In this document: piece by piece, positions 1 to 23,785 of the stretch
Layout of the letters: every line of letters starts with the position of its first letter
How positions within the stretch are numbered: position 1 is the first letter of the stretch
From: Escherichia coli
GTDB taxonomy: Bacteria; Pseudomonadota; Gammaproteobacteria; Enterobacterales; Enterobacteriaceae
Reading direction: 5' to 3' (one strand)
Length of the DNA stretch: 64,000 bases
NCBI RefSeq assembly: GCF_002854065.1
Contig: NZ_CP024147.1
Notes under the pieces: model-generated
Databases searched by the model: none
Told to the model about the DNA's origin: nothing
What the model saw: only the letters and a program-made list of their open reading frames with translations
Translations under genes and position numbers: made by a program

Positions 1-520
1 GGTTCGAGTTCTGCTGTGATAACGGAGAGAGACTGCGTGTCACGTTCGCGCTGGACTGCTGTGATCGTGAGGCACTGCACTGGGCGGTCACTACCGGCGG
101 CTTCAACAGTGAAACAGTACAGGACGTCATGCTGGGAGCGGTGGAACGCCGCTTCGGCAACGATCTTCCGTCGTCTCCAGTGGAGTGGCTGACGGATAAT
201 GGTTCATGCTACCGGGCTAATGAAACACGCCAGTTCGCCCGGATGTTGGGACTTGAACCGAAGAACACGGCGGTGCGGAGTCCGGAGAGTAACGGAATAG
301 CAGAGAGCTTCGTGAAAACGATAAAGCGTGACTACATCAGTATCATGCCCAAACCAGACGGGTTAACGGCAGCAAAGAACCTTGCAGAGGCGTTCGAGCA
401 TTATAACGAATGGCATCCGCATAGTGCGCTGGGTTATCGCTCGCCACGGGAATATCTGCGGCAGCGGGCTTGTAATGGGTTAAGTGATAACAGATGTCTG
501 GAAATATAGGGGCAAATCCA
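1..520 (+). mobile_element. IS2 right-end fragment; element continues beyond the window start
   Basis: Frame-0 translation from nt 3 gives IS2 InsD C-terminal half (…[20 protein letters not shown]…[19 protein letters not shown]…NRCLEI); terminal sequence GGGGCAAATCCA ends at 520 as recalled for the IS2 inverted repeat. Confidence 0.85.
3..509 (+). CDS. insD: IS2 transposase InsD (OrfB), 5'-partial at window edge
   Basis: Integrase-core motifs in translation; ORF runs open to window start. Confidence 0.85.
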
Positions 521-1063
521 TTGACCAAGTACTTTTGTTAAAGCGGTAACTCTGCCAAGCAATTCTGCCGACTGATTTTTTGCCTGCTGATAAAGGTCCA
601 TAAAACATATCTTCTTGGCTGGAAAACGTTCCATCAAAGATTGATATTCTTCTAGCTCGCCCAGAATCACAGCAAGTTTGGCTTCATGAATAACTTTTTC
701 TTTTTCTATATCGACCAAGAAACGATCAGCCCCCGGTGCCGACGGTTTCATTTTTTCGGGCATAGCGATAAGCCGCGAATTCTTTGGCAACGCTCTTGGT
801 ATGAAAATAGTTGAATGAAAACTTTCCGTTTTCTTATACACACTTCTGGACTTGCCACCACTACTCTCAATTTTATAGATGAAGCCCAGGGACTCTAACC
901 GAAGAAGTTGTCGGTGAATGAATTTTCTAGCCTCAGTAACTTCTGCGTAGTCATCTGTAATCTTCAGCAAAGCATCCCTGAGATGGATAGCGCAGAACTC
1001 ATTAAAACCCATCTCAATCAATAACTTATACATATATGGATGCAACTTTACTGCAGATTTCAT
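521..1063 (-). pseudogene. Hypothetical protein gene, 3' end interrupted by the IS2 insertion (last 28 codons of the 209-aa ORF are IS2-derived)
   Basis: ORF 434..1063 crosses the IS2 terminus at 520/521; native part ends …LTKVLGQ; no family recognised. Confidence 0.5.
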
Positions 1064-1161
1064 TATAAAAAATCCAAAATAACAAACTTAGAATTGCTAA
1101 GTATACAGAAACCAACGAAACTTAGACAATCTCAGCACCCTAAGGCAATGATGATGAATAC

Positions 1162-1473
1162 GTGGCTCACCCAAACCCGATACCCGAGAGGCTCAAAGCG
1201 GCCAGAACAAAAGCTGGGATCACTCAGAAGGAATTGGGGATCCGAATTGGCATGGAACCCAGCTCGGCGAGTGGTCGTATGAACCATTATGAGAAAGGGA
1301 GACACACTCCTGACATTGATACCCTCAAGCGTATGGCTGATGAACTTGGGGTACCAATTAACTATTTCTTTTGCGAGAACGACATAACTGCAGAATTAGC
1401 ATGTCTGATAGCTAAAATGACTGAGCAGCAGCAGATTGAATTGATTGCTATGCTAAAGAAAAATCAATCTTAG
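1162..1473 (+). CDS. XRE-family helix-turn-helix transcriptional regulator (103 aa, GTG start)
   Basis: HTH signature ITQKELGIRIGMEPSSASGRMNHYEKGRHTPDIDTLKRMADELGVPINYFF; divergent from 521..1063 gene, same strand as downstream ATPase. Confidence 0.7.
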   Translation: MAHPNPIPERLKAARTKAGITQKELGIRIGMEPSSASGRMNHYEKGRHTPDIDTLKRMADELGVPINYFFCENDITAELACLIAKMTEQQQIELIAMLKKNQS

Positions 1474-1861
1474 ATTTTTCACAGAACTCATACCTGAATA
1501 ATATCAGGGTTTCTTAGATATCCTTGACCTGCGACGTATACGCCTCCTCGAAGGGTATCCGCAATTTCTTATCTCATGTATCAGCTACCACCCAAACCGA
1601 ATCTTCATCAGTTCCGGACGTCATGTAATAAACCATAATTCTGGAAATCAAGGAAGCAAATCTAATTGTGTAAATGACCCCGTTGTTTCAGTAATTGAGT
1701 AACATGCCATAAACGGGATTAATAAAGACTTCATTTTAATTTCAACGCCCTTATCAGCCTGAAGTAAAATATGACTTGCAGATCACGTGAATACCTAAGC
1801 TGGAAGAGTATCTTTTACTATTGCAGTCCAACGTGAGAAAACAACAAGTCAACAAGGATTC

Positions 1862-22271: not shown

Positions 22272-22310
22272 ACTCTGCATAGTTATTGTAAGAACGGATA
22301 TGATTGTGAG

Positions 22311-22565
22311 ATGGAAGGGGTCATTAACCCAGCATTTTGTATAGATTGTAGTACAAATGGTAGTATTATTGATGGCGAACAAGCTGCCTGGTGGAAAAGC
22401 AAACATAATGCACTGATCTTATATTTGAGTGAAAACGCAGAGATATCTACTGCTGTTTATATTCACTGCCTAACACAAATTCATGCAGCTGAGAAGGTAA
22501 TGTCTGATTTTTCAATAGAATACATTCCATTTCAGCCCGAAATAGAGATCAGAACAGATGAGTAA
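22311..22565 (+). CDS. Small hypothetical protein (84 aa) downstream of recombinase trio
   Basis: ATG start; 8-bp overlap (ATGAGTAA) with next ORF. Confidence 0.4.
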   Translation: MEGVINPAFCIDCSTNGSIIDGEQAAWWKSKHNALILYLSENAEISTAVYIHCLTQIHAAEKVMSDFSIEYIPFQPEIEIRTDE

Positions 22566-23013
22566 AAAAGACAACACACTGCTACTGCTTGAGGCAGCTC
22601 TGGACCGTATTTTACGCGGTGAATCACAGAAAATAGCACCATCCCGAAAACTCAGTGTTCGGGCGGTTGAGGTAGAATCAGGACTCGGTAATGGTAGTGC
22701 ATATTACCACACTAAAATTATCGAAAAAATCAAACAAATAAAAAACTCTTCCATAACGACAGGAAGTTTAAATCATCAACATCGAAAATGGAAACAAAAA
22801 GCACTTAAGGCTGAAAAATTAAAAAACAAATTCCGGGATGAAAACATTGCATTAAAATTATTAAATTCACAAATTGCCGCAGATCAGTATAGACAAATGA
22901 GCACTTTAAGAGATGCCTTACAACGTATATTGGAACTCGAAAAAACAATTGAAGAATTGAACATTGAACTGGTTGAGACCAGACGTAAAAACATTACTCT
23001 ATTTAAGCAATAA
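22558..23013 (+). CDS. Hypothetical coiled-coil protein (151 aa), possible fourth recombination-accessory gene (ginD-like?)
   Basis: Lys/Glu-rich heptad-like C-terminal half; translationally coupled to upstream ORF. Confidence 0.4.
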   Translation: MSKKDNTLLLLEAALDRILRGESQKIAPSRKLSVRAVEVESGLGNGSAYYHTKIIEKIKQIKNSSITTGSLNHQHRKWKQKALKAEKLKNKFRDENIALKLLNSQIAADQYRQMSTLRDALQRILELEKTIEELNIELVETRRKNITLFKQ

Positions 23014-23785
23014 CTCAGTTATAACACAATACGATTTACAATAGATAGTTTCGCGATGATAAGCATTACTGCGTACCGTGAATATCCTACGTTATACAGG
23101 GTTACGGGTAAAAACTATCGGGTCTGCGGTGAGACATGTCATTTTCATCGGTACATCCCCCGTTAAAGGGGAAATTATCTTTCCGGTCTTCATTTTCTTA
23201 ATAAAGTCCAATTTTTGCTCAGTGTCATCCTGGTATCTCTTTCATTTCTGATTATCCCACACAGAGGATTCAGCCAGAAAAGTACATTTTTCAGTTTCTA
23301 TCCCCTCACTCCGGCTCCTCCCCTTTCAACACTGATTTCGGGAAAACAAGCATGCGCCTAAAAAACAATCAAAACAGTCCGTATAAGTTACTTAGGTTGT
23401 CTGCTACTACAATCCCCTACCTTCTCAGTCAGTTGTTTATGGACTGACAGGAAGTAAAAAAGCCTATTAAAAAGAGCAAAAATAAGCAGCTAAACAAACA
23501 GGAAGCCTCTCAATCAAATGATAGTATTCCGAAATCAGCAGTTCAGCATGTAATAGGTACACGAGGGAGTTATGGTCTCTAATGAGTCGAGTTCACCAAG
23601 CACAAGAAGGATGGAAATTGCCGGACACCAAACTCTGGAAAAGTCCCATCCTGCCCAGAAGCCTTCCCCCACAAGGCTTTCCAGTTTTTCTACAGTTAAA
23701 TCGTGTATGGGTACTGCGTGACCATGCGTTAAATGTTAAAGGGCTAAGAGTAGTGTGCTCTTAGCCCTTAATTACGTTTCCGCTA

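Follow-up and report, generated by a model that had tools for sequence, protein, structure and literature searches.

The question raised by this locus is what kind of element placed a block of arsenic-resistance genes beside dinQ in Escherichia coli CUWW06, and how it came to be there. The window analysed here, a 64,000-nt stretch of DNA, matches this strain. A sequence-only reading of the window had proposed an arsenic island inserted between gor and dinQ, with recombinases inward of its right border. Genome comparisons support a horizontally acquired arsenic island at gor/dinQ, and its recombination genes do lie just inside the right border, with the core at 17413-23013 and the border at 23713. 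The best explanation, to which we assign a probability of roughly 0.8, is that the island is a single integrative element of the SE family (strand-biased circularizing integrative elements), 26,084 bp long and bounded by the termini C and C’. This kind of element is already known. The element itself is absent from the literature searched, in which no arsenic island at gor was found described for either Salmonella or E. coli, and a published survey of SEs lists two of its proteins.

The boundaries of the element were defined by comparison with genomes that lack it. Empty sites in K-12 and in L029, a closer relative, show 54 bp as the normal distance between gor and dinQ. The E. coli empty site reads GAAGA-GTTCGT-GACCATGCGTTAA and that of Salmonella GGAAGA-GTTTGT-GACCATGCGTTAA. 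Homology with 5,400 other E. coli genomes ends at position 9637 of the CUWW06 locus L001, within gor. The left end of the element lies 2,370 bases left of the window, within the last codons of gor, and its right end is window position 23713, or 23719 if a 6-bp footprint is counted. According to the rule published for SEs, attL consists of the left host flank, 6 bp of host sequence and C, attR consists of C’, 6 bp from the donor site and the right host flank, and the SE terminus ends in GTA (PMC9345347, PMC10214605). This att anatomy is found in both the E. coli and the Salmonella copies: attL is the host's own 6 bp followed by TACCATGAGAGG, and attR is TGTATGGGTA followed by CTGCGT and then GACCATGCGTTAA. 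The attL core is host-specific and differs between E. coli and Salmonella, whereas the 6 bp at attR are common to both, a pattern that fits independent integrations in the two genera. Under the SE rule of PMC9345347 and PMC10214605, the CTGCGT footprint would have been brought from the donor site.

The 6-bp rule is imperfect in some copies, as an IncHI2 plasmid (L013) has TTGTGT at attL, one base different from the usual IncHI2 site TTGCGT, and terminus C of a Citrobacter plasmid relative (L021) begins with C instead of T. Described SEs end in imperfect inverted repeats of 13-19 bp. The two termini of the E. coli element form at most a weak inverted repeat, with ...ATGG(G)TA and one offset 11-mer (TGTAGAAAAAC) as their sole common sequences. 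Repeats within the 700-bp right arm were limited to short matches at chance level, and a promoter scan returned sites no more numerous than in shuffled sequence. An alternative description of the junction as an imperfect direct repeat of 10 bp (CGTKACCATG, containing a mismatch) was replaced by the 6-bp SE scheme after the termini were compared with published ones.

Table 1. Features of the element and its right flank, in window coordinates.
Feature	Position	Strand	Basis or remark
Left terminus C, TACCATGAGAGGTTAGTGTA...	2.37 kb left of window
IS2, right-hand 520 bp	1-520	+	Annotation; whole IS is L001 11190-12520
VspR-like protein gene, native 189 aa, 3’ end cut by IS2	434-1063	-	Pfam VspR_N/VspR_C on intact copies
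XRE/C-protein-like helix-turn-helix regulator	1162-1473	+	PADLOC 'Control_protein' E=5e-26; NCBIfam RstR family E=4e-10
SMC/ABC-type ATPase, 869 aa	1865-4474	+	PADLOC LmuB E=3e-26, residues 84-698; Pfam SMC_N/AAA_15/AAA_23
Truncated eukaryote-type glutathione synthase gene, C-terminal half	4608-5336	-	NCBIfam glut_syn_euk, profile positions 263-471 only
ars cluster 1	5394-9700	+	RefSeq annotation; Pfam domains on identical proteins
arsR (cluster 1)	5394-5747	+
arsD (cluster 1)	5794-6156	+
arsA (cluster 1)	6174-7925	+
arsB (cluster 1)	7973-9262	+
arsC (cluster 1)	9275-9700	+
ArsN1-like N-acetyltransferase	9735-10271	-	NCBIfam ArsN1b E=1e-42, below curated cut-off
TauE/SafE permease	10484-11308	+	Annotation
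ModE-like winged-helix protein	11371-11739	+	ModE_repress E=5e-22
ars cluster 2	11813-16954	both	Annotation; Pfam ArsA_ATPase, ArsD, FMN_red, ArsP_1
arsA2 (cluster 2)	11813-13570	-
arsD2 (cluster 2)	13591-13953	-
ECF sigma factor (cluster 2)	14029-14574	-	SigZ-like E=2e-38
arsH (cluster 2)	14583-15293	-
arsR2 (cluster 2)	15392-15715	-
ArsP-family permease, divergent from the minus-strand genes of cluster 2	15821-16954	+
intA, tyrosine recombinase, 447 aa, intact	17413-18756	+	From 17413 (annotated start 17452); PHROG integrase E=5e-17
tfp, tyrosine-recombinase-fold protein, 574 aa when intact, pseudogene here	18749-20472	+	Comparison with 100416 and Salmonella
intB, large tyrosine recombinase, 697 aa when intact	20469-22565	+
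srap, small fourth core gene, 151 aa, coiled-coil, intact	22558-23013	+
Non-coding right arm ending in terminus C’ (...AAATCGTGTATGGGTA)	23014-23713	+	Identical in Salmonella up to the junction
Terminator-like hairpin in right arm	23658-23680
TGTATGGGTA at end of C’	23704-23713		Single copy of the motif per element, at its right end; four independent contexts
6-bp footprint CTGCGT adjoining C’	23714-23719	+	Non-host; same in E. coli and Salmonella copies; compared with empty sites
Displaced native gor 3’ end, GACCATGCGTTAA	23720-23732	+	Alignment with K-12 and L029
gor terminator	23739-23769
dinQ	23786-23869	-
AgrB RNA, sole agr copy	24144-24228

These comparisons revise several landmarks of the sequence-only reading. 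The island it described is real, but its site is inside the last codons of gor. The gor gene, which it had reported as absent, is indeed outside the window, but it is intact 2.36 kb to the left. The comparison with K-12 and the search for gor and the left junction that it had called for yielded a precise empty site and a left junction inside gor. It had placed the right junction at 23.0-23.3 kb, which is 0.4-0.7 kb short of the actual position. The dinQ-agrA-agrB-Pars array that it located at 23.7-24.3 kb is represented there by dinQ, one AgrB RNA and the ars promoter region, with only a single agr copy. It had also used native arsR as a landmark near gor; that gene and most of arsB are deleted, and the Pars region is present directly 5’ of arsC. 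The SE kind, the exact junctions, the rebuilding of the gor 3’ end and the decay of the recombination genes are not visible from the letters of the window alone.

The contents of the island were correctly recognized from the letters: both ars clusters, the SMC-type ATPase and the end of an IS2 are present. The IS2 is a secondary insertion within the element, flanked by a 5-bp target duplication (TTGAC) and absent from strain 100416. Left of the first base of the window, at a distance of 0.8-2.37 kb, are the left terminus of the element, a helicase gene and attL. Comparison with 100416 and Pfam searches of intact copies show that the VspR-like gene is normally translationally coupled to this downstream ResIII helicase gene (462 aa), and the XRE/C-protein-like regulator gene is divergent from it. 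The 869-aa ATPase is best matched by Lamassu LmuB models and is a candidate defence gene; no complete known defence system is present around it. Compared with a Salmonella copy (L014), in which the glutathione synthase gene is full length and extra genes are present, 7.78 kb are deleted here, and the stump of this gene marks the left edge of the deletion.

All of the cargo between the left terminus and intA amounts to 19.8 kb, and only 700 bp follow srap. Such a layout could also arise if a cargo-less canonical SE of ~6.5 kb (~17.1-23.7 kb) stood beside a separate arsenic/defence island that had arrived by another route or by tandem integration, in which case the core recombinases would have mobilized only the small part. 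This composite would agree with the position of intA ~100-200 bp from the left terminus in described SEs and in Vibrio and Shewanella relatives, with the publication of a cargo-less SE of 6.35 kb, and with the occurrence of the ars block without core genes on other plasmids (window 5421 to ~17000 shows ~93% DNA identity with E. coli plasmids such as NZ_CP019248.1 and NZ_CP010317.1). However, a motif search of the element found no internal C-like or att-like terminus upstream of intA, and each terminal motif is single per element. Moreover, homology links the gor-side terminus, 19.8 kb away from intA, both to the V. cholerae terminus located directly before intA and to the C terminus of SE-EasCA1043, the displaced gor end lies to the right of the core and not to its left, and the relatives L021 and L025 likewise carry cargo between C and intA. 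We consider a composite quite improbable. Taking the island as one SE, the location of the core genes at the left end in the Vibrio and Shewanella relatives, unlike in the E. coli element, indicates that the upstream-cargo layout is derived within the clade.

The core comprises four same-strand ORFs in the order intA-tfp-intB-srap, with overlaps of 8, 4 and 8 bp and a GC content of 37-43%, and it has the operon structure that defines SEs. What had been read as a recombinase trio is three genes with a tyrosine-recombinase fold plus a small fourth gene, the SE four-gene core. IntA orthologues carry the Pfam Phage_integrase domain (PF00589), and the catalytic RHRY motif is visible in the translation. 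NCBIfam, PHROGs and Pfam returned nothing for core genes 2-4, and their family was assigned via homologue context, literature and structure prediction. The AlphaFold model of Tfp matches Cre, XerA and lambda Int (E=7e-5, probability 1.0). Tfp retains some catalytic residues (invariant R263/R264, R350/R352 and Y383), but it has no invariant histidine near R350/R352 and Y383, and the box-II histidine positions are occupied here by S and N; it thus has a recombinase fold without the full catalytic motif, as the SE definition asks. In IntB, R337, K368, H482, R485, H509 and Y518 (RKHRHY), as well as H599-C626, are invariant among 28 homologues. Its model matches Cre and XerH, and the IntB and Tfp models together match Cre, Xer and lambda Int. 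Two of the genes are damaged in CUWW06. A 1-bp deletion after 19776 splits tfp into ORFs of 346 and 181 aa, and a TGA at 22269-22271 (GGA in 100416 and Salmonella) converts G601 of IntB to a stop and so deprives the protein of its invariant Cys/His-rich domain (residues 601-697). An intact core is present in Salmonella, for example in isolate GCA_005639195.1.

The same general plan, three tyrosine-recombinase-like genes followed by a small fourth, is found in the ginABCD-type islands called GInts (Bardaji et al. 2017), in which all four are required. GInts also resemble the E. coli element in their site-specific insertion at gene ends with preservation of the target gene product, their short imperfect flanking repeats (10-17 nt) and their large, variable adaptive cargo, which includes metal resistance; in Escherichia they occur in 7.5% of replicons, as compared to 0.3% for SEs. 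Nevertheless, that the island is a GInt is very unlikely. In GInts, GinA and GinB have the full motif and the third protein, GinC, is degenerate, whereas the E. coli element has the SE-like order, with the degenerate member second and the full RKHRHY set third. In addition, each core protein matches only its positional counterpart in the SE of pAQU1 and in a Pseudomonas SE-type operon; GInts were compared here through their published description. In these BLASTP comparisons, IntA matches the pAQU1 SE protein at E=7e-13, Tfp matches SE Tfp at E=2e-11, IntB matches SE IntB at E=1e-15 and 5e-25, and Srap shows marginal similarity to the fourth gene of the Pseudomonas operon (E=1e-3). Finally, published clustering separates GInt from SE proteins, and the tfp fragment (WP_050438664.1) and Srap (WP_032288336.1) are listed as tfp and srap orthologues in Additional file 3 of PMC10214605. 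An assignment of the Pseudomonas four-gene operon (L022) to the GInts was dropped; its fourth gene has a close homologue in the SE table.

The insert is present in 2 of 5426 complete E. coli genomes. The second carrier, strain 100416, has it at the same site with flanks 99.97% identical to those of CUWW06, indicating vertical inheritance within this lineage. That the region is ancestral and was lost elsewhere, or was gained by homologous recombination of its flanks, is barely plausible: the shared site and near-identical flanks of the two carriers would agree with it, and host 6 bp at attL would also be expected after flank-mediated replacement from another E. coli, but the island is confined to two genomes, the empty site is precise in relatives that share the arsRB-deleted background, identity to the Salmonella copies is 99.8% for the island as compared to ~84% for the flanking core genes, and each host keeps its own 6 bp at attL and shares the donor 6 bp at attR. 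The disparity in identity also points to a recent transfer of the island, as does the GC content of its core. Two findings named beforehand as evidence against an acquired island, gor beside the recombinase genes and an ancestral region, were not encountered.

Copies and relatives of the element occur at two kinds of site. The same element is present at gor in Salmonella and at the 3’ end of trhU on the IncHI2 conjugative plasmid L013 (where it was read as far as arsP), and this left end adjoins gor in both E. coli and Salmonella, and trhU on the plasmid. The L013 copy is 99.994% identical to one Salmonella chromosomal copy over 16.8 kb, IS3 included, and the IntB protein is encoded on hundreds of Salmonella contigs. 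A search of PLSDB returned no plasmid with this core, the best match being 65%. Both ends of the 65% identical relative on a Citrobacter IncHI2 plasmid (L021) are defined by comparison with the empty trhU-trhN site, and its attR footprint is GTTTGT, the same six bases as the gor core of Salmonella and, from attL sequences, that of Vibrio cholerae. Vibrio and Shewanella relatives (IntB 36-47% identical) lie directly after gor, and an Enterobacter relative is also at gor.

Based on the junction anatomy and SE family membership, on which our mechanistic claims rest, the following history can be proposed. The products of intA-tfp-intB-srap would have recombined a circular copy with the 6-bp core GTTCGT in the last codons of gor; excision, a circular form and strand bias are expected of the element by analogy with its family. 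The left terminus carries ACC ATG AGA GGT TAG and thereby rebuilds Gor with ...VTMRG* as its end, where the empty site gives ...VTMR*. By sequence, the cargo would have delivered two arsenic-resistance clusters to a lineage in which native arsR and arsB are deleted, together with a Lamassu-like ATPase and a module of HTH, VspR-like and helicase genes. Carriage on an IncHI2 conjugative plasmid is a likely route between genera; the copy on plasmid CP172812.1 would then read core, ...TGTATGGGTA, 6 bp and CAGATATATACC between trhU and trhN. In CUWW06 the element is probably fixed in place, because tfp is frameshifted, intB is truncated, an IS2 has been inserted, and all four core genes are essential in the SEs studied. 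More speculatively, enterobacterial gor-targeting SEs may have evolved a second cargo bay (8-20 kb) between C and intA and recruited the HTH/VspR-like/ResIII-helicase trio, which accompanies the core in hosts from Vibrio cholerae to E. coli, into the element life cycle, e.g. to regulate or replicate the copied-out circle. We find this idea rather doubtful. If true, the 6-bp footprints would serve as a natural log of moves between gor and the trhU site of IncHI2 plasmids, and this would be the first SE whose intergeneric spread is traceable in surveillance genomes.

Recognition of SEs dates only from 2018-2023, and ends, targets or cargo have been defined for few of them. The element described here is an SE with a large arsenic-resistance package, found in both Salmonella and E. 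coli, and, at the sequence level, its junctions in two genera support the unusual rule by which SEs integrate. IncHI2 conjugative plasmids often carry drug and metal resistance, and the junctions suggest a chromosome-plasmid-chromosome route for the latter. The location of the cargo indicates that SE cargo is not confined to the region downstream of srap, which matters for element-delimiting software. In the lineage lacking arsRB, the element would account for regained arsenite efflux, as predicted from its genes, even though in CUWW06 it now appears to be a decaying passenger.

Among known systems, classical integrase islands, ICEs and IMEs have a single integrase, with or without Xis, at a tRNA or gene end, and ICEs and IMEs also have genes for conjugation or mobilization. 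The E. coli element has a four-gene core, and its annotation contains no relaxase, oriT protein or type IV secretion genes. Tn554 of Staphylococcus differs in having no Tfp counterpart, in its Firmicutes hosts, and in its small size and antibiotic-resistance cargo. Enterobacterial plasmids share the arsRDABC / arsH / arsA-arsD / permease block, but there it has no SE core or termini and is embedded among Tn3-family and IS elements. In GInts the gin operon is at the 5’ end of the island with cargo after ginD, whereas in the E. coli element the core is at the right end with cargo upstream. The arrangement characteristic of described SEs, with the core at the left end, ~200 bp from it in the SEs studied, and cargo downstream of srap, is likewise not found in the E. 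coli element. The experimentally studied SE-6945 and SE-6283 (Vibrio alfacsensis) and SE-Pda04Ya311 (pAQU1) share only 21-27% protein identity with it, and both their targets (the yjjN terminator, insJ and bcp) and their cargo (beta-lactamase or none) are different. Nevertheless, they have the same four-gene core order and the same att anatomy, in which attL keeps 6 bp of the host, attR has 6 bp of the donor and the terminus ends in GTA. They also insert at specific targets and ride conjugative plasmids, as the kin of the E. coli element does, and SE-6283 likewise carries a copy of its disrupted target gene. A published parallel in target site is SE-EasCA1043 from Enterobacter asburiae CAV1043 (20,288 bp; Idola et al. 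2023, Additional files 6 and 8), compared here by its published termini and description. A cluster look-up gave no match between homologues of the E. coli element and its accessions, its cargo is not described as arsenic resistance, and its C’ terminus (…GTGTGGTAGTA) differs from the …TGTATGGGTA of the E. coli element. Yet it has an SE core and occupies the same gor 3’ end, with an attB of ...GAAGAGTT.GTGAC.ATGCGTTAA, and its terminus C, TACCATGACACGTTAGTGTA, agrees with that of the E. coli element at 18 of 20 positions and differs at two.

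The island in this window is real and was acquired horizontally, and its type, target, ends and relatives are all precisely definable. The window corresponds to the chromosome of CUWW06, which was isolated from wastewater in Thailand (base 1 equals position 4,428,288 of the record). Relative to the RefSeq record of that strain, it shows six mismatches, one 1-bp indel each near 15292 and 24198 and, beside IS1, an additional 80 bp at 25541-25620, and it may stem from a different assembly or from a sister strain; for about 15.3-24.2 kb, window coordinates are those of the CUWW06 reference locus (L001) minus 12001. 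The sequence-only reading had named IS2, a candidate defence ATPase, two ars systems, a recombinase trio, dinQ and the ars promoter (native part 23.7-24.3 kb), all of which were found. Its dinQ-agrA-agrB-Pars order at 23.7-24.3 kb holds for dinQ and Pars, but a single AgrB RNA lies there in place of the agr pair. As it had also claimed, gor is missing from the window; an intact gor was located 2.36 kb beyond the left window edge, and a helicase gene and the remainder of IS2 come after it. The gor-dinQ spacing in K-12 is 54 bp. Homology between CUWW06 and ~5,400 other E. coli genomes ends at L001 9637, nine bases short of the gor stop codon, and picks up again at window position 23720 with GACCATGCGTTAA, which is the displaced gor end, followed by the gor terminator and dinQ. 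In a closer relative that shares the native background, the empty site reads GCAGAAGA-GTTCGT-GACCATGCGTTAA. The element is 26,084 bp long (L001 9631-35714) and extends from before base 1 of the window up to 23713, or to 23719 if the neighbouring 6 bp are counted. The earlier prediction of a right junction at 23.0-23.3 kb was too far left; it was placed just past the last open reading frame and overlooked a 700-bp non-coding arm. At the other end, the element supplies ACC ATG AGA GGT TAG, so that the Gor tail reads ...VTMRG (stop) rather than ...VTMR (stop).

The junctions follow the rule described for the strand-biased circularizing integrative element (SE), in which the six central bp of the target stay at attL beside the left terminus C, and attR has the six bp of the donor site beside the right terminus C' (PMC9345347, PMC10214605). 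Two published SEs, SE-EasCA1043 from Enterobacter asburiae and SE-PmiBC1123 from Proteus, are inserted in the same gor 3' end (PMC10214605, Additional file 6); terminus C of SE-EasCA1043 is TACCATGACACGTTAGTGTA, and that of the arsenic element is TACCATGAGAGGTTAGTGTA. In E. coli, attL reads ...GAAGA GTTCGT followed by the element start TACCATGAGAGG..., and attR consists of the element end ...TGTATGGGTA, CTGCGT and GACCATGCGTTAA. The empty site in Salmonella is GGAAGA GTTTGT GACCATGCGTTAA, and the Salmonella copy retains GTTTGT at attL and has CTGCGT at attR, as in E. coli. Each host thus keeps its own six bp on the left, and the donor six bp are common on the right, a pattern expected if both hosts acquired the element independently from a common donor through SE-type integration.

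The whole 26 kb appears to behave as a single unit. Each element has one copy of the left-end motif and one of the right-end motif TGTATGGGTA, and neither was found in a search upstream of intA. An identical left end adjoins gor in E. coli and Salmonella and the trhU 3' end on a 302-kb IncHI2-type plasmid (L013, CP172812.1); this copy, read from its left end as far as arsP, is 99.994% identical to a Salmonella chromosomal copy (L017) over 16.8 kb, IS3 insertion included. A 65% identical relative spanning 22.2 kb resides on the Citrobacter koseri plasmid pK820-1 (L021), where both ends were set by comparison with an empty IncHI2 site (trhU-trhN spacing 18 bp). There the plasmid's TTGCGT is kept at attL and GTTTGT, the gor core, is present at attR; therefore, this element derived from a gor site. 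Insertion at trhU costs the conjugation protein TrhU its six C-terminal residues (...RYIPGA), in whose place stands TMRG or TMTR (L013 5842-5860; L021 9050-9075), a tail suited to Gor.

The four core genes (intA, tfp, intB and srap) are same-strand open reading frames that overlap by 8, 4 and 8 bp, and comparison with strain 100416, the second complete E. coli genome bearing the island, and with Salmonella gives intact products of 447, 574, 697 and 151 residues. In searches of NCBIfam, PHROGs and Pfam, only gene 1 was recognized and genes 2-4 had no match. BLASTP against the pAQU1 SE and a Pseudomonas SE-type operon gave one-to-one positional matches only (E-values: IntA, 7e-13; Tfp, 2e-11; IntB, 1e-15 and 5e-25; Srap, 1e-3). 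Cre, Tre, Xer and lambda integrase are the sole significant folds matched by the AlphaFold models for gene 3 and gene 2, so the "recombinase trio" of the sequence-only reading is right at the level of fold. Salmonella, Enterobacter, Pseudescherichia, Vibrio, Shewanella and Paraphotobacterium contain homologues of gene 3, a small unannotated family in which an R-K-H-R-H-Y set and a Cys/His-rich C-terminal domain are invariant. The C-terminal domains of Tfp (residues 446-520) and IntB (residues 599-626) both contain invariant Cys and His residues (alignments A6 and A5) and look like metal-binding modules; no description of such end domains in SE core proteins was found in the SE literature examined. 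Both the gene 4 product (WP_032288336.1) and the fragment encoded by gene 2 (WP_050438664.1) appear in the tfp/srap orthologue table of the SE survey by Idola et al. (PMC10214605), and the arsenic element is absent among the 37 SEs with termini defined there. The nearest alternative, that the island is a GInt (a ginABCD island; Bardaji et al. 2017), is very improbable, as GInts carry a degenerate member in third place and their proteins form published clusters separate from those of SEs.

Features of the element and of the adjoining native ars locus
Feature	Window position
IS2 end	1-520
VspR-like protein and ResIII helicase, split by IS2 (target duplication TTGAC)	434-1063 and left of window
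SMC-type ATPase, best match Lamassu LmuB (3e-26); adjoins C-protein-like regulator (5e-26)	1865-4474
ars cluster 1: arsR-arsD-arsA-arsB-arsC	5394-9700
ArsN1-like acetyltransferase, TauE permease, ModE-like protein	9735-11739
ars cluster 2: arsA-arsD, ECF sigma factor, arsH, arsR, divergent from ArsP-family permease	11813-16954
Recombinase-like gene run	17413-23013
Site of native arsRB deletion	24128-24343
AgrB antisense RNA (Rfam, 103 bits)	24144-24228
Native arsC, cut by IS1 (24773-25540)	24404-25540

Cargo varies among copies of the element. No complete known defence system was recognized around the SMC-type ATPase. The HTH/VspR-like/helicase trio is found together with the core in V. cholerae, Citrobacter and Pseudescherichia, and is missing from some relatives. 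The VspR-like/helicase junction was struck independently by IS2 in CUWW06 (L001 11177-11190) and, ~12 bp away, by IS3 in the Salmonella/plasmid variant (L013, L017 7390-8656), which could mean that insertions are favoured at this spot or that the module is selected against. Salmonella copies contain an extra 7.78 kb (L014 13408-21188) that was lost in CUWW06, where the deletion point lies at ~5263-5272 with a 10-bp overlap. This segment encodes a full-length glutathione synthase, an ArsR-like regulator, a low-molecular-weight-phosphatase/thioredoxin-type ArsC, a dual-specificity phosphatase, two unknown proteins and a TtrA/TtrB-like molybdopterin oxidoreductase scoring 663 bits, well under the TtrA cut-off; it could constitute a thio-arsenic module or a related redox module. 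The cargo of the 65% identical sister element in Citrobacter (L021 9522-14150) resembles a Bil-type anti-phage system, with a ubiquitin-like conjugation cassette (multiubiquitin/E2, ThiF-JAB, BubE/DUF6527), an ATPase and a DNA-binding protein. In the Pseudescherichia copy (L027 1-4150), the core is also followed downstream by a type I restriction-modification system.

Beyond the element, a clean deletion (K-12 locus L002 7483-9168) has removed native arsR and most of arsB; Pars is now followed by ~49 nt of the arsB end and by arsC, which is itself cut at codon ~123. Of 5426 complete E. coli genomes, 1111 have the identical deletion junction, which means that about a fifth of the species is without the native arsenite pump; the deletion, being old and common, therefore did not arise together with the island. 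K-12 has two agr repeats, agrA and agrB, both of which align with the same 115 bp of the window. Compared to strain 100416, the window lacks the slp-dctR segment that separates arsC from chuS, presumably because of a deletion mediated by IS1.

Between E. coli and Salmonella, identity is 99.8% for the island and ~84% for its flanks, and the GC content of the core is 37-43%. The island is present in only two of the 5426 complete E. coli genomes, which are close relatives, and further variants occur among draft genomes. The CUWW06 copy is most likely immobile because tfp (1-bp deletion after 19776) and intB (TGA instead of GGA at 22269-22271, which cuts off the invariant Cys/His-rich domain) are broken, and recombination of studied SEs needs all four core genes. 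The frameshifted tfp fragment is the same in NZ_CP024147.1. In strain 100416, the stretch from the ATPase through intA is gone via an IS3-family element, and tfp holds an IS1. A draft E. coli genome (GCA_031650735.1) contains a junction between island and native arsC (L015 17350-17837; ~86% identical genes); this recombination appears to have cost the island its right half, with every recombinase gene, and to have fixed the left half in the chromosome.

Relatives with 36-47% identical IntB proteins lie directly 3' of gor in Vibrio cholerae, a second Vibrio and Shewanella, and a single Paraphotobacterium relative is at a different gene end. In the Vibrio and Shewanella relatives, intA starts ~90-105 bp past gor, the canonical SE layout; the C-to-intA distance in Enterobacterales is 19.8 kb here and 7.9 kb on pK820-1, and Enterobacter wuhouensis is similar. 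The clade targets gor, and the right-shifted core in Enterobacterales is a derived layout. The core genes of published SEs are "located at the left end", whereas those of the arsenic element are at the right, and this position is the only tested SE feature that the element lacks. The island belongs to the SE family as a previously undescribed, arsenic-carrying member whose cargo is atypically placed; it is not a new kind of system.
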